A stretch of DNA of 64,000 bases from a virus (Duplodnaviria; Heunggongvirae; Uroviricota; Caudoviricetes), in IMG/VR virus record IMGVR_UViG_3300021400_002728, positions 197,154-261,153 of that record, one strand, 5' to 3'. The notes beneath the pieces were generated by a model that saw only the letters and a program-made list of their open reading frames with translations, did not search any database and was not told the DNA's origin. Position numbers and translations under genes: made by a program. Below, piece by piece: positions 2,779 to 37,382 of the stretch; positions within the stretch are counted from its first letter, which is position 1, and every line of letters begins with the position of its first letter.

Positions 2779-3027
2779 TTATCCTACAGCTGACTTTAAT
2801 TCCTTAAAATCATAGTAACGTTTCTCATTATATTCTATATAAGAACAATCACCATCAGAGTTTAATACAATTTTCATAGATCCAGCTTCAAACATATTAA
2901 AGTATGGTCTATTAAACTCTTTTATTTTTGACAGTTCATCTAAATGAAAAGGCATTCTTTTACCATATCTTTGAAGTGTACGATTTATGTTCTTTTCAAG
3001 AATTTCAATTACTTTCTTGCCATCCAT
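2779..3027 (-). CDS. hypothetical protein
   Basis: ORF; start at MDGKK behind GGAGG. Confidence 0.7.
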   Translation of the reverse strand: MDGKKVIEILEKNINRTLQRYGKRMPFHLDELSKIKEFNRPYFNMFEAGSMKIVLNSDGDCSYIEYNEKRYYDFKELKSAVG

Positions 3028-3040
3028 AACTCTACCTCCA

Positions 3041-3331
3041 TTAACCATCCTCTTCTACTGAATTACATCCACTACAAGTAATAGGTTTTGTAGTAAGATA
3101 TATACTTGCAAAAGGCTGTGTTCCATCTGCTTCAACTTTTACTATGTGATACGTATCATTATCATTAAAATTTGTAACATTAGGTTCTTTAAATGATAAT
3201 TCACCACTTTCAAATCTGTCATAGTCACCTTTACGAAGAACTTTTGTAAGAACTTCATTTATATCACCATTTGAAACTGGTGCAATACGAGTGTCCATAC
3301 TACCGAAAAATGTACATACAGCAATATACAT
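3041..3331 (-). CDS. hypothetical protein
   Basis: ORF with GGAGG RBS. Confidence 0.75.
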   Translation of the reverse strand: MYIAVCTFFGSMDTRIAPVSNGDINEVLTKVLRKGDYDRFESGELSFKEPNVTNFNDNDTYHIVKVEADGTQPFASIYLTTKPITCSGCNSVEEDG

Positions 3332-30767: not shown

Positions 30768-31316
30768 TTATGCTATTAAAGAAGAAATATGATATCCTCT
30801 AACAAAATCATATGTTTCTTCAACATTTAAAAGTGTTTTAGCTGTATCTTCAACAAAAATTATTTCTTTATTGTGCTTATTATAAATTTCTTTTAACTTT
30901 TCCAGTTTTTCTTTTGAATTTCTGACATGAATAACATTTTCTTCTTTTACCGTTGGAAAAAATTTTTTTATAGCTTTATTTTTTCCTTTTTCAACATTTT
31001 CTTGTGTTACTGTTAAAATATAAACATCTTCTTCATATAATTCATTTAATATATATTGCATTGTTTTAGGAATCTTAACGTTTTCATAAATATTATTTAA
31101 CTTTGAATACTCATTTATATCGTCATCCTTACAAGGAAGAAGTCTATCAGTTGCATAATCAAAATGTGTTAATGTTCCATCAAAATCAAATACAACTGTT
31201 TTAAATTTTAATAAAGATATAAGGTTCAAAACATTTCTTATATATTCGTCTTTTAAGCTAGATATATCAATATCATTTAACATCCTTCCAGCGTTCATAA
31301 TATTATCGCCAAACAT
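30768..31316 (-). CDS. HAD-superfamily hydrolase
   Basis: VVFDFDGTL motif I, ILT motif II, K, FVED motif IV. Confidence 0.75.
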   Translation of the reverse strand: MFGDNIMNAGRMLNDIDISSLKDEYIRNVLNLISLLKFKTVVFDFDGTLTHFDYATDRLLPCKDDDINEYSKLNNIYENVKIPKTMQYILNELYEEDVYILTVTQENVEKGKNKAIKKFFPTVKEENVIHVRNSKEKLEKLKEIYNKHNKEIIFVEDTAKTLLNVEETYDFVRGYHISSLIA

Positions 31317-31405
31317 ATATTAAGCCTACTTTCTTTTAGAATAACTTTGATAAAACACTTTTTATAATATATAAGTTATTCTACATATAAAATTAGTTTT
31401 TTCTT

Positions 31406-33223
31406 TTATATAATAAACACTTGAATTGACTCATATTCTTTCTTTTGATTACCGTCTTTTCTAGTAAAATGACTAGATTTCTGTTGTAAAATAATCTCTT
31501 CTACAAAAGAATAACCTAAATCCAAGATTTGTTTATTCATATCTTTCTTAAATCTTTGATTGATTTGATAAGCAACTATCTTACAATCAGATTTCTGAAT
31601 AACTGATTTCCACCAAGTTAAAAACTCTTCATAAGAAAGATTCTCTGCACCATTATCAGTATAGATTTCAGTATTCCAATATGGTGGACAAGTAAATAAT
31701 ATATTACTAGTAAAGCTACCTTTACTTGAATCCCCATACTTAACTGTAGCATTGATATTATACTTATCAATCAAAGTATTAAGACCTTCCACAACATTAT
31801 CATTTATATCAAATCCTAAATATCTGATTCCATATTGATGACAAGTAAGCAGTCTCTCACCCCAACCAGAACAAGGGTCATATATAGTAGAAGGCTTATA
31901 TTTTTCAATAAACTGTATCATACCAGTATTATCAAATGTACTATACTTTCTAAGTTTACCAGAAATACTAAGTCCATTTAATAAGGCAAGATTAGAAAGT
32001 TGATGTGGTAACTTATCTAAATACTTGTATCTGTTTATGAATAGCTCACCTAATACCAATGGATTATCAAGCATTTCAATTTCTCTTTTAAAATACTCAT
32101 TCCAGTTAGCAAGTTTAGCTATTTGAGTCACATTCTTAATTTTGTCTGGAAGTGTGTCATGTTCAGAAAAGTCTCTGTTAAATATAAACATAAACTCTTC
32201 TTCTGACCAACATACTAGATAATTAAGATTGTTTTGCTGAGCAGTCTCTAACTTCTTTAAGTCTGATTCAGTCCATACATGAATAGCTATGTCAAAAAAT
32301 TTAGTATGCTTTGCTTTCCATTCTTCTAAAACTTTAATATCTTCTGAATTATTAGAATCAAAGAAATGACCACCATGTGTCCAAAAGAAATTACATTCTA
32401 CATATAAATCTAACTCAGGCACATACATATCACATTCAAATGGATAAACATCTGAAGTATAATGATGTACAGCATTAGGAAATATAGACTGTAATAAATC
32501 ATAACATTTATCTTCTGACTGAGATTTTCCATAGGTTCCATGCTCATGTAGAGTTCTTCTACGTTTAACCTTAAATTCTTCAGAACCTAAATATTGTCTA
32601 CTTTTGTTAGACTTCCCATAATTATCATAGCCATATCTGGACAGCATTGTAGATTTACCTTTTTCTCTAACTTCCTTAGATTTCATAGGGTTATCTACAC
32701 CATAATGCTCCATATATGATTGTTTCTTCTTTTCAAGAACTTCTGAGGAAGCATAAACATTATCTACTCCATAACGTTCTTGAACTGTTTGCTTACACTT
32801 TTCTCTATTAGTAAAAGTAGAGTTGCCATATCGCTTTTCTTTAGTAGCAGCAATTTTCTTAGCTGTTTCTGAACTAGCCATTCCAACTCCACCATGATTT
32901 TCAATAATAGTTTGTTTAATTTTCTGTTTTACTTCATCTGCTTGAAATGGATTTTCTACTCCATACTTTTCTAAATTAGTCTGTCTAGCTTTCTTTAGTC
33001 TAGACTTAGCATTTGCAGAATTTTTTTCTGACATTATTTTAGCTCTACATTTTTTACAACGTCCTCTTTGTTGATAAAGTTTACTTGGTAATATTTCAAA
33101 ATCACCATGTTCTTTACAAGTAACAATAATAGGAGTTGTATAAGATTTCCAATCTATATTAGAAAAATCATACTCTGGAAATAACTTTTCACATTTTTCT
33201 AAAAATTGTTCCTTTGTAATCAT
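31406..33223 (-). CDS. homing-type endonuclease (Zn-ribbon, KYGV repeats, Vsr/PD-(D/E)xK-like) fused to an amino-DNA-methyltransferase domain
   Basis: CKEHG..CKKC; repeated 'TNLEKYGVEN'; CDMYVPELDLYVECNFFWTH; IYDPCSGWGERL (SAM motif) and FTCPPYW (catalytic-like motif); start at MITKE behind AAGGAG. Confidence 0.8.
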   Translation of the reverse strand: MITKEQFLEKCEKLFPEYDFSNIDWKSYTTPIIVTCKEHGDFEILPSKLYQQRGRCKKCRAKIMSEKNSANAKSRLKKARQTNLEKYGVENPFQADEVKQKIKQTIIENHGGVGMASSETAKKIAATKEKRYGNSTFTNREKCKQTVQERYGVDNVYASSEVLEKKKQSYMEHYGVDNPMKSKEVREKGKSTMLSRYGYDNYGKSNKSRQYLGSEEFKVKRRRTLHEHGTYGKSQSEDKCYDLLQSIFPNAVHHYTSDVYPFECDMYVPELDLYVECNFFWTHGGHFFDSNNSEDIKVLEEWKAKHTKFFDIAIHVWTESDLKKLETAQQNNLNYLVCWSEEEFMFIFNRDFSEHDTLPDKIKNVTQIAKLANWNEYFKREIEMLDNPLVLGELFINRYKYLDKLPHQLSNLALLNGLSISGKLRKYSTFDNTGMIQFIEKYKPSTIYDPCSGWGERLLTCHQYGIRYLGFDINDNVVEGLNTLIDKYNINATVKYGDSSKGSFTSNILFTCPPYWNTEIYTDNGAENLSYEEFLTWWKSVIQKSDCKIVAYQINQRFKKDMNKQILDLGYSFVEEIILQQKSSHFTRKDGNQKKEYESIQVFII

Positions 33224-33312
33224 TTTTATTTCTCCTTCATAGAAATATAATAAGCAGCTTAGTGATGAAGGCACTATTACTCAAAGGCTCATGACTTCCT
33301 TTGCTCCCTGCA
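33224..33312 (-). ncRNA. structured 5' leader (3-way junction + kissing loop over the RBS), copy A
   Basis: covaries with 35258-35345; loop CCTTCAT complementary to loop ATGAAGG. Confidence 0.65.
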
Positions 33313-33320
33313 TTATTAAC

Positions 33321-34164
33321 TTAATTGTAGAGATACTCGTATATCTCCAATGCAGTCATTTCTTTTTCTTCGCCGGCTACACGAACTTTAATTTTTTCGT
33401 CTTTATCAAACTCACGACCGGTAATCCAAATTTTACCAGTCCAGTCTGTGGGCTTATAGTCTGCGACGTCATTCAAACCAATTTTCTGCATCTTCTTATT
33501 ACGAGAATACATAACTGAACGTCCAATTCTTAAAATCTCTGCAGCCTCTTGAACAGAGTTAGCAACGGCAACTACACCATTCATTCCCTTAAAAGGATAA
33601 ACATTATTAGACTATATCATATTCTCTAATTAGAGAACCCTACCACTTCGATTTAATAGACTGATATTAGACTAATCTCATCTAAATGCTAACCATATTG
33701 GCTCTACTCTACTTACTTCGTGCAAATGCCTTATTTTCATACCGTATTTCAGGTCCTATAGCTTTCGATAGTCGTTGAACCCGTCTCTGTTACCAAGACT
33801 TGGCTGCTGATTTTCCATTCTTATAACCCTTAGGATTTAACCATAGGTCATCCAAATTATTTTTTCTGCTTTCGCTGCATATCACGTTTAGTATTTCTCT
33901 TACGTTGTAGCTAATTTGGCATTAGGTTCGTATTCATTATAAGAATACTGTTCCAGCAATTCAATAGGGAATTTTTCACGCATGTCACCATACGCGGGAG
34001 CTTCATCCTTTAAAAACGCACTCCGTTTGCTTTATGTCTACAAGCGCAACCGATATTTTATTATTATGTTCGATTCTTTAGGCTTTCGCCTAAATACAAT
34101 GGAATATGACATTCCTCAAAGTGACACTATTGTGCGAAATGAGTCCTCGTTTAGCTGTCTCCAT
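33321..34164 (-). CDS. fragmented FtsK/SpoIIIE-like ATPase middle segment with N-terminal intein C-tag; join(34164..34093, 34071..34020, 33601..33321), 134 aa
   Basis: GGAGG RBS; reconstructed METAKRGLISHN|SVTLRNVIFHCI-EHNNKISVALVDIKQTE-FYPFKGMNGVVAVANSVQEAAEILRIGRSVMYSRNKKMQKIGLNDVADY follows the FtsK pattern between Walker A and Walker B. Confidence 0.75.
33602..34019 (-). mobile_element. group I self-splicing intron (418 nt, no internal ORF; IA-like)
   Basis: P AATTGCTGGAA (33961-33951), Q AATCAGCAG (33812-33804), R GTTCAACGACTA (33780-33769), S ATGATATAGTCT (33620-33609); P1 GGAGT/GCTCC with U.G at the splice site; P10 AAAGGATGAA/TTTATCCTTT; terminal G; splicing restores the frame. Confidence 0.9.
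34072..34095 (-). other. candidate translational bypass (ribosome hop) element
   Basis: ATT TAG GCG AAA GCC TAA AGA ATC: Ile take-off, stop inside TTTAGGC-GAAA-GCCTAAA hairpin, Ile landing 21 nt later. Confidence 0.6.
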
Positions 34165-35257
34165 TGTAATCATCACCTCCTTTTATAAACTGTTTAGTTT
34201 GAGCTATATTTTTACATTTTCTACAACAGTACATTTGATAACCTCTAGTGAAGTTAATATACTTAGTAGGTTTATTACAAACTAAACATTTCCCTTCATT
34301 ATTAGATTTTATATATGTATCATAATATTCTTTGCAAGTAATCTGTTCATTAAATCTAATATGTGCAGACAGATAATTACCATTTTGAAAAGTCTGATTA
34401 CATATTAGACATGTCATTGGATTATTTTTTATTTTAGGTACATATACAATAGTTCTTGGTTTATCATACTTAAATTTTTTATACCAATATTTATCTTTAT
34501 ACTTCTCTTCACAATACTCTAAATATTGCTTAATATCACTATATGACCATACTATAATGTTGTTTGTATCAATGCATTTTTGTTTATCAGAGTCTTTTAA
34601 TGTGCCATCTGAATTTAGATATTGATTACCTTTAACTTCTATAATATCAGCATTTATTTTAAAGTCAGGAAAATATTTATGTGTAATATTATTTGAGTCA
34701 GTATAAGTCAATATGATAGGTAAACGTTCTATAGGTATATTATGATCTTTATGCCAAATATATACGGCAACTTCCCAAGATGAATCAAATAATTGATTAT
34801 CATAACTATAATATTTTCTAGACTGTTGGATATTTTTGTCTTGCATTGGATGTTCAACACCATATTTAGCTAAACTGTTCTTCTTATGTTCAACCTTAAA
34901 ATAATCAGTTTTGAATATTTCATCTTGTCCATATTTAGCTTTTATAGTTTTCCTAATCTTAGATCTAACTTCTTTAGAACTTAATACACTTTCTACACCA
35001 TATCTTTCTAGATTAGTGTCTTTATGTTTCTGTTTACATTGTTCTGTATTATGAGAACATCGTAAGCAATATTCAAAATATCCATATATAACATTTTTGA
35101 ACTTAGTAGGTTTTCCGCAGGTTTTACAAAATCCATCATTGGTTTTATGTAAATAAGTATCATAGTATTGTTTAGTTTCTATTTTATGTGCTTGCTTAAT
35201 ATGTCCTCCAAATCCAATATTAGATTCAAATTCTTTTCCACAAATAAGACATTTCAT
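34151..35257 (-). CDS. homing-type endonuclease (Zn fingers, KYGV repeats, TnsA-like PD-(D/E)xK)
   Basis: CLICG..H...H, CKTCG; FDSSWE, YFPDF, IIEVKG; duplicated Zn module at C-terminus. Confidence 0.8.
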   Translation of the reverse strand: MKCLICGKEFESNIGFGGHIKQAHKIETKQYYDTYLHKTNDGFCKTCGKPTKFKNVIYGYFEYCLRCSHNTEQCKQKHKDTNLERYGVESVLSSKEVRSKIRKTIKAKYGQDEIFKTDYFKVEHKKNSLAKYGVEHPMQDKNIQQSRKYYSYDNQLFDSSWEVAVYIWHKDHNIPIERLPIILTYTDSNNITHKYFPDFKINADIIEVKGNQYLNSDGTLKDSDKQKCIDTNNIIVWSYSDIKQYLEYCEEKYKDKYWYKKFKYDKPRTIVYVPKIKNNPMTCLICNQTFQNGNYLSAHIRFNEQITCKEYYDTYIKSNNEGKCLVCNKPTKYINFTRGYQMYCCRKCKNIAQTKQFIKGGDDYNGDS

Positions 35258-35345
35258 GCTATTTCTCCTTAATAGAAATATAATAAAGCAGCTTGATGAT
35301 TAAGGCATCATTATCTCTTTGGTTAGCTAGACCAAAGCTACCTGT
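35258..35345 (-). ncRNA. structured 5' leader, copy B
   Basis: same architecture as 33224-33312; loop CCTTAAT complementary to loop ATTAAGG. Confidence 0.65.
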
Positions 35346-35408
35346 TATATTATTAAATAGCCTATATGAAAAAGAGACATACCAAGCTTGATATGTCTCC
35401 TTTAAATG

Positions 35409-35744
35409 TTAATTTGTCCAAACTCCATCTTTGTAATATACCGTACCTAAGTTAAAACTAAACTTCCAACCAGTTTTCATATATTTGTCGTCATATAATC
35501 CAGCGTCTATAACAGCTTCATAGTCATTTTCTGTACCACCTTCAAGTGGATTTAAAGTAAGTCGTACAAAGTATGGTTTTCCATCTCGCTGTGTATCTGG
35601 TGCAATAGAATAATAACACTGATCAGTTTCATTATAGAATAAAGTTGGAAATTTGAGTTTAAACAAAGTAAAGAGTACAATTGTTGCATCAAAAAAATCA
35701 TCTGTGCGAATAAGGTCAGTGTAGAAATCAGCGTCTTTTGTCAT
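35409..35744 (-). CDS. hypothetical protein
   Basis: ORF with AAGGA RBS. Confidence 0.7.
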   Translation of the reverse strand: MTKDADFYTDLIRTDDFFDATIVLFTLFKLKFPTLFYNETDQCYYSIAPDTQRDGKPYFVRLTLNPLEGGTENDYEAVIDAGLYDDKYMKTGWKFSFNLGTVYYKDGVWTN

Positions 35745-35841
35745 AATAATTTCCTTTCTTTTTAATTAAATAGTTCCTGCCTATAAGCATAAAAAGTTTA
35801 GGCAATGGTAAAACACATCAACCTAAACTTTTTATTATATA

Positions 35842-35875
35842 ATAATATCATGCTCCTTAATATTTGTAAATAGTT
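35842..35875 (-). promoter_or_regulatory. sigmaA-type promoter
   Basis: AACTA-TTTACA-N17-TATTAT with TG. Confidence 0.65.
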
Positions 35876-35888
35876 TTTTTGAAAAAAC

Positions 35889-37382
35889 TTACTCATTTGT
35901 GTAAGATAAGTATAAAGTTTCATCAAAAGCTCTATTAAACATAGCGGTAAACTCACCTAATCGTCTACCATCTACATCAGTATCTTCCAGTTTGTAGGTA
36001 ATAAAGTCAAAGATATAACTATTGTTTTCGCCTTCAGTAATATCGAGAATACGCGTATGTTCATTTTCATCATTGAATATAGCCATTATACCGCGCATCT
36101 TTTCAAGTAAGGCACTACCATATTGTACAGTAGAATCAGTTTTTTGCCATTTACCTTCCTGTTTAGTATTATAGACTGATTTTCTAATATAGACAGTTTT
36201 TCTGATTCTATAAGTAGAGTCAATAGGCATACGTTCTGCAAACTGTTTTCTTTGATCTGACGTAAATATTGGCCACATTGCTTGTACTGAGTCTGACCAA
36301 TCACATAGATCTGACATAAACTTACTCTTAGATATTTTATTATTTATTAAGAACTCTGATAAGTAAGTATGATTTTTCTCACTAGGATGATTAAACTCAT
36401 AGTATAGCTTAAGTAACTGTAATAATAACTTTTCCAGTCGTTCAGGAATAGTTTCTTCTATAAAAGCTCTATTAACTAAATCCTCATATGAATCTTTTCC
36501 AAGTTCAATGAGTTGGTTAACATATCTGAAACTTCCTAAGTTTAAAGAATCATCTACTTCAACATTTGATACAATTGTATCTATACCATCAGTTTCAAGT
36601 CTATGAATTAAACTTTTTCTTACATATCTAAGACTTTCACGTACATAAATATTATTTAATATAAGATACATAGAATATTTGAAACAGTTGATGTATTTTT
36701 CAGAACAATTCGCTATAGTAACAATTTGTTCTACCATAGGATCCAGTTTACCATCAATAAAATCTTTTATTCTATAAGAACTCACAGCATCAGTTAAATT
36801 ATACTTTATATTAGTACTAGCGTCTCTAAGATAAGCATTTTTTGACTTAAAGGTTTCAATATACTGTTTAAATGTTTTATAATTAGTGCATAAAGTTAAA
36901 TTGTACTTTATATCATCTAAAAAGTTATGACAATCTACAATGGCTTTAAAATAATTAGATTCTTTGCCATTAAGTTCTTTATCATGTGTAGCTTTATATT
37001 TTATTCTAGCTGATTCATAATCAGATTGATTTACACTCTTGTACTGAACATATCCATTTTCATTTACACCATCTGGAATCAAATAAAAATGTAAGCAGTG
37101 ATCAGTTAAACTTCGAGTAGCATTCTCAATAATAACAATTTCAAAATGATTTGGAGTAGCCTTATAATCATCTAGAGCAAGTACTCCCCAAATATGACAA
37201 TAAGATGCTAAGTTAAGAAATTCACTTTTATATAAAAAGTCACAAAGTCGCTGTACAACTATTCTTAAGCTAAAACGATTATAATGATTAACAATATTCT
37301 TCTCGAGATAACTCTTAGATTGCTTAAGCTTCGCAAACTCATGATCTCGCTGTGTATTATAATCAATTTCTATGCCACCCAT
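35889..37382 (-). CDS. large hypothetical protein
   Basis: 497-aa ORF with GGAGGAGG RBS. Confidence 0.85.
   Translation of the reverse strand: MGGIEIDYNTQRDHEFAKLKQSKSYLEKNIVNHYNRFSLRIVVQRLCDFLYKSEFLNLASYCHIWGVLALDDYKATPNHFEIVIIENATRSLTDHCLHFYLIPDGVNENGYVQYKSVNQSDYESARIKYKATHDKELNGKESNYFKAIVDCHNFLDDIKYNLTLCTNYKTFKQYIETFKSKNAYLRDASTNIKYNLTDAVSSYRIKDFIDGKLDPMVEQIVTIANCSEKYINCFKYSMYLILNNIYVRESLRYVRKSLIHRLETDGIDTIVSNVEVDDSLNLGSFRYVNQLIELGKDSYEDLVNRAFIEETIPERLEKLLLQLLKLYYEFNHPSEKNHTYLSEFLINNKISKSKFMSDLCDWSDSVQAMWPIFTSDQRKQFAERMPIDSTYRIRKTVYIRKSVYNTKQEGKWQKTDSTVQYGSALLEKMRGIMAIFNDENEHTRILDITEGENNSYIFDFITYKLEDTDVDGRRLGEFTAMFNRAFDETLYLSYTNE

Follow-up and report, generated by a model that had tools for sequence, protein, structure and literature searches.

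A kissing-loop RNA leader proposed to bury the Shine-Dalgarno sequence of free-standing phage homing-endonuclease genes

No selfish genes are commoner in phage genomes than those of homing endonucleases, whose expression has to stay low enough to spare the phage; the control known hitherto is a simple hairpin over the ribosome-binding site (RBS), usually tied to a T4-type late promoter. Single RBS hairpins have been published for I-TevI, I-TevII, I-TevIII, and segB of phage T4 and for mobE of the Aeromonas phage Aeh1 (PMC3014915), and Dassa et al. (2009) found hairpins in 15 of 16 5′ untranslated regions of free-standing Vsr-like and GIY-YIG nucleases in "fractured genes", at one locus of which the hairpin persists after loss of the nuclease (PMC2677866). 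Here we describe a more elaborate leader that precedes two homing-endonuclease genes in a Caudoviricetes genome, within a stretch of 64,000 nucleotides (nt), hereafter the window, comprising positions 197,154 to 261,153 of IMG/VR virus record IMGVR_UViG_3300021400_002728. Like the I-TevI and mobE hairpins, the leader is an RNA structure that lies in cis where translation of a homing endonuclease begins and takes in the Shine-Dalgarno (SD) sequence; and as in the fractured genes of Dassa et al., a Vsr-like nuclease lies between the pieces of a fractured gene, and the hairpin can outlast the lost nuclease. It differs from the I-TevI and mobE structures, which are single hairpins often carrying a late promoter in the 5′ arm, in that the loop of a second hairpin pairs with the SD loop over 7 bp, a three-way junction precedes, and the window copies have no internal promoter.

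Elements of this architecture are familiar from other regulatory RNAs. As in riboswitches with an SD pseudoknot (preQ1-II, SAM-II/SAM-V), the SD or adjacent bases are paired with a distant loop, and as in purine riboswitches there is a three-way junction with arms docking by their loops; however, the leader matches no riboswitch in Rfam, no ligand is indicated, and in the kiss one arm of the junction contacts a hairpin outside it rather than another arm. The ColIb-P9/IncI repZ pseudoknot forms beside the SD, activates translation, requires translation of a leader peptide, and is countered by an antisense RNA; there too, bases at a downstream RBS are paired with a hairpin loop that lies upstream, but in our leaders the SD itself is paired and there is no leader peptide. 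Retroviral dimerization initiation site (DIS) hairpins and the 7-nt kissing loops of ColE1 RNA I and RNA II form intermolecular complexes. Our leaders share fully pairing 7-nt loops with ColE1, and with DIS a 6-nt palindrome in hairpin 1, mostly at positions 3-8 of a 9-nt loop; the kiss over the SD is, however, intramolecular, and dimerization through hairpin 1 is conjecture. Rfam 15 gave no hits in the window at the gathering threshold and noise only at E ≤10 over positions 31000-36000, and in 14 related loci it recognized only group I and II introns, away from the motif. In the literature searched in full text we found only simple RBS hairpins with no loop-loop contact, although a 2023 catalogue of more than 10,000 candidate viral structured RNAs (PMC10690425) could include the motif unnamed. 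A preliminary description, made from the letters of this stretch, had suggested a possibly undescribed cis element more elaborate than the known RBS hairpins, and within Rfam 15 and the literature searched this is borne out, the added elaboration being the kiss over the SD and the three-way junction.

The virus record is a single contig of 394,266 bp with 32% GC and terminal repeats; the sequencing runs place it and its relatives in gut and bovine gut metagenomes. Both endonuclease genes and their leaders lie on the minus strand, and each leader occupies about 95 nt directly 5′ of the ATG (Table 1). The N-termini of the two proteins are unlike, yet the leaders share one layout, which reads from 5′ to 3′ GNAGC, hairpin 1, GAG(N)UAA, hairpin 2, AGC, an AU-rich stretch, and P4, the 7-bp RBS hairpin in whose 7-nt loop the SD begins; all of the parts listed in the preliminary description are present in the minus-strand sequence. 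Both leaders thus have a hairpin that includes SD bases at the start of the endonuclease gene, and the SD of leader 1 (AAGGAG) spans the P4 loop and 3′ arm. In the minimum free energy (MFE) fold, bases 5′ of GNAGC pair with bases 3′ of AGC, and because this closing helix (P1) encloses hairpins 1 and 2, the 5′ part of the leader is a three-way junction, one arm of which bears a self-complementary loop in both window copies (UCAUGA and UAGCUA). P1 of leader 2 is a candidate with two mismatches that adjoins a promoter-like motif and may be transcribed only in part. In both leaders the loops of hairpin 2 and P4 are exact reverse complements of each other (7 of 7 positions), and a loop-loop C-G pair in one leader is A-U in the other, the compensatory change that had been pointed out at the start; flanking bases do not extend the complementarity in either leader.

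Within the genome this arrangement occurs twice only. A generic descriptor specifying two hairpins no more than 60 nt apart, with stems of at least 4 bp, fully complementary 7-nt loops, and an SD-like second loop, matched exactly the two leaders in the 394,266-bp genome and nothing in five Markov shuffles.

Comparison with other viral contigs reveals the same pairings in different sequences. Specifically, i) scan 1, with CCTTNAT and TCTATNAAGGAGA fixed, gave 50 hits, of which 37 had complementary bases at the two N, where 25% would be expected; ii) in scan 2, where the closing pairs, CCTT, TCT, and AAGGAGA were fixed and any base was allowed at the three non-SD positions of either loop, Watson-Crick complementarity extended over all three in 30 of 67 unique hits (chance 1/64, binomial P 4e-36), with 11 different triplet pairs, the other 37 hits having 2, 1, or 0 matches (3, 18, and 16 hits, respectively), as in random sequence; iii) in scan 3, with C at position 4 of loop 2 and either A or G allowed at its SD partner, G, which gives a C-G pair, yielded the true motif in 33 of 40 hits, and A, a C-A mismatch, yielded it in none of 20; and iv) in scan 4, which specified the junction domain only (GTAGC, a space for hairpin 1, GAG(N)TAA, hairpin 2 with CCTT, and AGC) and set nothing downstream, 6 of the 7 hits with a valid hairpin 2 were followed 13-21 nt further on by an exact 7-nt complement, in each case as the loop of a 5-10-bp hairpin containing an SD, while the seventh (L286) ends inside P4, like a truncated relic. 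The complementary hits of scan 2 also differ from the rest in their stems and ATGs: the median hairpin 2 stem is 7 bp in the 30 complementary hits versus 2 in the other 37, the P4 stem 5 versus 3, and an ATG lies 3-10 nt downstream in 28/30 versus 9/37; pattern hits with noncomplementary loops precede ordinary genes such as RecA. Scan 2 (including this comparison of stems and ATGs), scan 3, and scan 4 are the unbiased tests of the kiss. Copies found outside these patterns with model R1 add the loop pairs CCCTATA/TGTAGGG (with one G-U), CCATCAC/GTGATGG, and CCTCTAA/TTAGAGG, in which SD positions have also changed, and because of these additions covariation extends to five of the seven positions in the kiss. 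Four copies of the leader, each with a different loop pair, occur on a single 117-kb contig.

Alignment of the relatives extends covariation from the kiss to the stems. In alignment A3 (37 cores comprising hairpin 2, kiss, and P4), 89.7% of cells are paired and the covariation score is 0.488, compared to 0.113 when shuffled and ≤0.113 when slid, although selection of the A3 cores for complementary loops and minimal stems makes the loop statistics circular and leaves the outer stem pairs as the only independent evidence; P4 stem pairs 43-59 and 44-58 each occur as five pair types. In alignment A4, which holds 9 full junction-class leaders, 97.4% of cells are paired, 18 of 30 pairs have changed on both sides, and the score is 0.544 versus 0.147 shuffled and ≤0.134 slid; covarying pairs number 5 of the 6 counted in P1, 4 of 5 in hairpin 1, 3 of 5 in hairpin 2, 4 of 7 in P4, and 2 of 7 in the kiss. 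The stems of the two window leaders differ by compensatory changes, as first noticed, and across the relatives all five helices, the kiss included, covary. Among the 9 A4 leaders there is little or no variation in the unpaired GNAGC, GAG(N)UAA, and AG. G-U pairs outnumber A-C apposition in the helices by 14 to 4, an excess that modestly favours a sense-strand RNA.

Table 1. Positions in the window of the two leaders, their parts, and the genes they precede (R1 E-values are rough)
Feature	Position	Strand	Remarks
Leader 1 (P1, hairpin 1, hairpin 2, RBS hairpin, spacer)	33224..33318	-	model R1 62.8 bits, E 1.3e-11
Leader 1 P1, 5′ strand	33308..33318	-	pairs with 33257..33248, 6+4 bp, one bulged U; MFE fold
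Leader 1 hairpin 1	33283..33302	-	5-bp stem, 10-nt loop with palindrome UCAUGA
Leader 1 hairpin 2	33260..33276	-	5-bp stem; anti-SD loop CCUUCAU at 33271..33265
Leader 1 RBS hairpin P4	33227..33247	-	7-bp stem; loop AUGAAGG at 33240..33234
Endonuclease 1, DUF7487 (Vsr-like homing endonuclease), 605 aa	31406..33223	-	Pfam PF24308, E 4.9e-21
Leader 2, whole	35258..35353	-	model R1 62.0 bits, E 2.1e-11
Leader 2 candidate P1, 5′ strand	35342..35353	-	pairs with 35291..35281, 10/12 positions; by eye and alignment A4
Leader 2 hairpin 1	35318..35336	-	6-bp stem, 7-nt loop with palindrome UAGCUA
Leader 2 hairpin 2	35294..35310	-	5-bp stem; anti-SD loop CCUUAAU at 35305..35299
Leader 2 RBS hairpin P4	35260..35280	-	7-bp stem; loop AUUAAGG at 35273..35267
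Promoter-like motif, class B, GCTATTTAA type, just 5′ of leader 2 P1	35353..35361	-	enriched 8-mers
Endonuclease 2, DUF7487 homing endonuclease, 368 aa	34151..35257	-	Pfam PF24308, E 1.2e-16; PHROGs "homing endonuclease"

We count about 70 unique copies of the leader, a lower bound because the pattern scans sample narrow sequence subclasses. Besides the junction class to which the window copies belong, there is a compact class, the commonest, which consists of a GC-rich hairpin 2 and P4 only, without P1 or junction, and a third class in which the anti-SD lies within a larger hairpin 2 loop (L043 type). Among 32 downstream proteins, Pfam recognizes Endonuclease_7 in 8, an HNH-type domain in at least 3, GIY-YIG in 3, and DUF7487 in 3, the others including NUMOD3, NUMOD1, and AP2; PHROGs assigns 13 to "endonuclease VII" and many others to "HNH" or "homing endonuclease". 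The downstream nucleases thus represent at least four families, in unrelated phages. Conversely, none of the 8 further DUF7487 genes examined in this genome (of about 10 in total) has such a leader, nor was one found in the upstream regions of 35 distant DUF7487-type homologs, 25 of which were also searched with the model. The initial supposition that the leader travels with this endonuclease family is accordingly not supported, as HNH/EndoVII, GIY-YIG, AP2, and further nucleases have it too and most DUF7487 genes of this genome are without it; the leaderless homologs and the 8 leaderless genome copies led us to reject the view that it belongs to the DUF7487 protein family, and it is therefore a module of nuclease cassettes generally.

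The leader family is restricted to viral contigs, with one real instance among cellular genomes. In a control set of 596 Gb, with each of 185,579 prokaryote species represented by a single genome, a strict pattern had no hits and a looser one had 24, approximately the chance number estimated; the N positions were complementary in 4 of these 24, and the hairpins were absent from all save one real copy, on a contig of a metagenome-assembled genome that resembles the viral elements L041 and L076. A BLAST search of 50,697 GenBank phage records with the 2.5-kb region and leader 2 returned only a group I intron core or noise, and a search with two related loci returned no match; because of these results we can name no cultured phage as a carrier of the leader.

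What transcribes the leaders can be judged in part from their surroundings. Two classes of motif are enriched upstream of genes in this genome, with 8-mers enriched about 11-fold: one is a promoter of the host sigma-70 type whose -35 is embedded in AAACTATTTACA, followed about 14-17 nt later by TGTTATAAT, and the other is of the ACTATTTAAT type. Many class-two sites (ACTATTTAATTATAAT type, for example at 35766-35774 and 35866-35874 on the minus strand) precede a conserved leader hairpin starting GAAAAATGAC. Because a promoter-like motif lies directly 5′ of its P1, transcripts of leader 2 probably have their 5′ end at or inside P1 and include the complete lock, whereas leader 1, which has only a degenerate version of the motif and no intact one, probably rides on an upstream transcript. 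A reading of the flanks in other contigs suggests that consensus promoters are placed so that the RNA would begin at P1 in the junction class or at hairpin 2 in the compact class. Between hairpin 2 and P4 in the window we found neither the enriched genome motifs nor TATAAATA, the exact T4-type late-promoter octamer, which we noticed in this position by eye in two junction-class relatives only (L062 and L157). A scan of 33150-35500 with sigma-70 and terminator consensus sequences gave promoter-like sites at chance level and no terminator. By eye, a near-perfect palindromic hairpin with a T-run at about 35365-35400 (minus strand), between an upstream open reading frame (ORF) of 111 aa and the leader 2 motif, looks terminator-like; its loop exceeds the limit of the scan. 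Three junction-class leaders (L056:1254, L062:12385, and L074:1647) start at the base after a tRNA gene in phage tRNA arrays (tRNA-Ile, tRNA-Lys, and tRNA-Leu, respectively). Translational coupling to an upstream ORF as a general means of release was rejected, given these three relatives and the fact that the ORF upstream of leader 1 stops before P1.

The fate of the leaders in a close relative is instructive. IMG/VR contig L003 (331,944 bp) is collinear with this region and retains a leader 2 in which a single hairpin 1 pair has gone from G-C to G-U, but its endonuclease 2 (2858-3178) has been cut to 106 aa by an internal deletion, and endonuclease 1 has been deleted just behind its leader (L003:3594-3714 compared with window 31317-35257). 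What follows the preceding gene piece, at L003:3594-3690, is a relic of leader 1 in which one loop pair is spoiled to G-G, the 5′ arm of P4 is one base short, and no ATG comes after. As L003 holds this relic without endonuclease 1, the ORF has been lost while the leader stays and decays; the other possibility raised at the outset, that the leader is a structure marking the end of an element, is for the same reason unlikely. In a gut-metagenome relative (a DNA contig), an 8-nt deletion at window 35272-35279 removes the P4 5′ arm of leader 2, which may be another decaying copy. L003 also lacks the two ORFs of window 35409-37382.

Hairpin 1 has a peculiarity of its own. Its loop contains a 6-nt palindrome in 15 of 32 unique copies, versus 3.2 expected and a maximum of 10 in 2000 shuffles; there are six different palindromes, including TAATTA, TCATGA, TAGCTA, TTGCAA, and TTATAA, and a reading of the loops places them mostly at positions 3-8 of 9 nt. 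That the palindromes differ within one genome, and that most of them do not resemble -10 elements, led us to reject the idea that the hairpin 1 loops are -10 elements or one common operator. In the compact class a sigma-70-type promoter has the equivalent palindrome in its spacer; the palindrome is therefore unlikely to be part of the RNA and may act in DNA. Upstream of hairpin 2 at compact loci such as L102, L149, L227, L236, and L260 we observe TTGACA, a spacer, and a TGTTAAGAT-like element in a consensus promoter; the spacer is an inverted repeat around GGTTGCAACC or a similar core, a form conserved across many contigs.

We assign a probability of about 0.68 to the reading that the leader is a translational throttle which buries the SD in an intramolecular kissing complex. 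The leader would be the 5′ untranslated RNA of a free-standing homing-endonuclease gene, its P1, hairpin 1, and hairpin 2 forming a three-way junction with P4 directly behind it. The SD would begin in the 7-nt loop of P4, which takes up its first four bases, and run on into the 3′ arm; with all seven bases of the hairpin 2 loop paired to the P4 loop, the whole SD would be double-stranded, and binding of the 30S subunit would for this reason be disfavoured. Such a self-contained throttle would move with the nuclease cassette and keep a potentially harmful enzyme scarce at any transcript level, insulating it from settings as different as the cassette's own promoter (leader 2) or tRNA arrays (other phages). 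That the RNA adopts this fold in vivo and represses translation is what we infer; the throttle is favoured because P4 alone would leave AAGG exposed in its loop, whereas the kiss would pair the SD on both sides of the loop-stem boundary. By nearest-neighbor estimates hairpin 2 (-1.7 kcal/mol) and P4 (-2.7 kcal/mol) are both weak, and the 7-bp loop duplex is worth -7.3 kcal/mol in leader 1 and -5.0 kcal/mol in leader 2, compared to -9.5 and -8.2 kcal/mol for SD:anti-SD pairing.

Several observations weigh against a throttle pure and simple. The kiss energies just given are nearest-neighbor duplex estimates rather than measured tertiary energies, and the nested MFE is no better than that of shuffled sequences (z 0.23 for leader 1, -0.39 for leader 2), so that support comes from covariation and not from predicted energy; an unremarkable folding energy is nevertheless to be expected, because the stems are AU-rich and only 5-7 bp long and the main stabilizer is a pseudoknotted contact. 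The loop statistics of A3 are circular, as already noted, and 8 DUF7487 genes of the same genome are leaderless. The one RNA-library contig, 151 nt over 35193-35339 in leader 2, is possibly DNA carry-over, and leader 1 is uncovered. Finally, neither the conserved junction bases nor the self-complementary hairpin 1 loop would have a role in a pure throttle.

This last point is the strength of a reading we hold to be unlikely, in which the kiss is conditional: the junction bases (GNAGC, GAG-N-UAA, and AG) would bind a small molecule or protein, or the hairpin 1 loops would dimerize leaders in the manner of DIS, thereby setting or releasing the kiss. The near-invariance of those bases in 9 leaders whose helices all covary, and the excess of hairpin 1 palindromes (15/32 versus 3.2 expected) of six kinds, with the window copies using different ones, speak for it, but the commonest members are without P1 or junction and have their palindrome in the promoter spacer, no Rfam riboswitch matches, and the gene context hints at neither ligand nor partner. 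If the kiss were conditional, nuclease translation would be tuned to a signal or to the abundance of the mRNA itself, and the leader would be a new class of phage riboregulator on mobile nuclease cassettes. Slightly less credible is a temporal switch of the T4 I-TevI and Aeh1 mobE kind, set by the choice of transcription start, whereby read-through or upstream transcripts with the full leader would be silent and those from an internal promoter, lacking hairpin 2 (or also the P4 5′ arm), would be translated late. The mechanism is established for I-TevI, and TATAAATA is present in 10 hairpins of Dassa et al. (PMC2677866) as well as, by eye, in the hairpin 2-P4 linkers of L062 and L157; however, the window linkers contain neither an enriched promoter motif nor this octamer, the linkers of many compact members are about 2-12 nt and too short for a promoter, and the leader 2 motif lies upstream of the entire fold, so that its own transcripts would carry the lock.

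We consider it very improbable that the motif is instead a feature of the DNA, that is, inverted repeats marking a cassette end, a recombination site, or an operator. Every helix is also an inverted repeat in DNA, the hairpin 1 palindromes could be protein sites, and the L003 ORF was lost exactly behind a leader; yet one partner of the kiss is always the SD of the downstream gene, in coding orientation and followed 3-10 nt later by an ATG; the stems keep their pairing through free changes of sequence, as suits structure rather than protein recognition; G-U is tolerated above A-C; and the leader outlives the ORF instead of flanking the deletion at either end. A last reading, that two duplicated leaders resemble a structure by chance or through paralogy alone, finds some support in this genome, which has just two copies with near-identical unpaired segments and a nested MFE z that is not significant. 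The comparative data refute it: some 70 independent relatives have different sequences and the same pairings, the descriptor has no hits in shuffled genomes, and the cellular scan is at chance level; we give it next to no weight.

If the leader is indeed a throttle, it would be a portable, promoter-independent design, an intramolecular 7-bp kiss over the Shine-Dalgarno sequence, found with no fewer than four unrelated families of nucleases and in dozens of uncultured phages, the loop pairs varying from copy to copy. The leader is a candidate for a new Rfam family, could serve as an annotation flag for free-standing nuclease cassettes, decayed ones included, and may offer synthetic biology a natural set of orthogonal loop-loop translational locks.

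Some neighboring features deserve brief mention. Endonuclease 1 has an in-frame C-terminal part with methyltransferase-like motifs (DPCSGWG-type and TCPPYW, by eye), although Pfam gives DUF7487 alone. Within the noncoding stretch 33585-34150, an insert that L003 lacks, positions 33768-33926 (minus strand) have 74-79% identity over about 157 nt to unannotated stretches of Staphylococcus Twort-like and other phages; the match in phiIPLA-RODI lies between a shortened tail-tube coding sequence and the "Ioh" gene and resembles a group I intron core, although in the window the Rfam group I model does not attain even E 10 there. Lastly, two leader-bearing contigs are hot spots for mobile elements, with clustered group II intron domains within a few kb in L052 (6270-8106) and three group I introns within a few kb in L157 (2249-3827).

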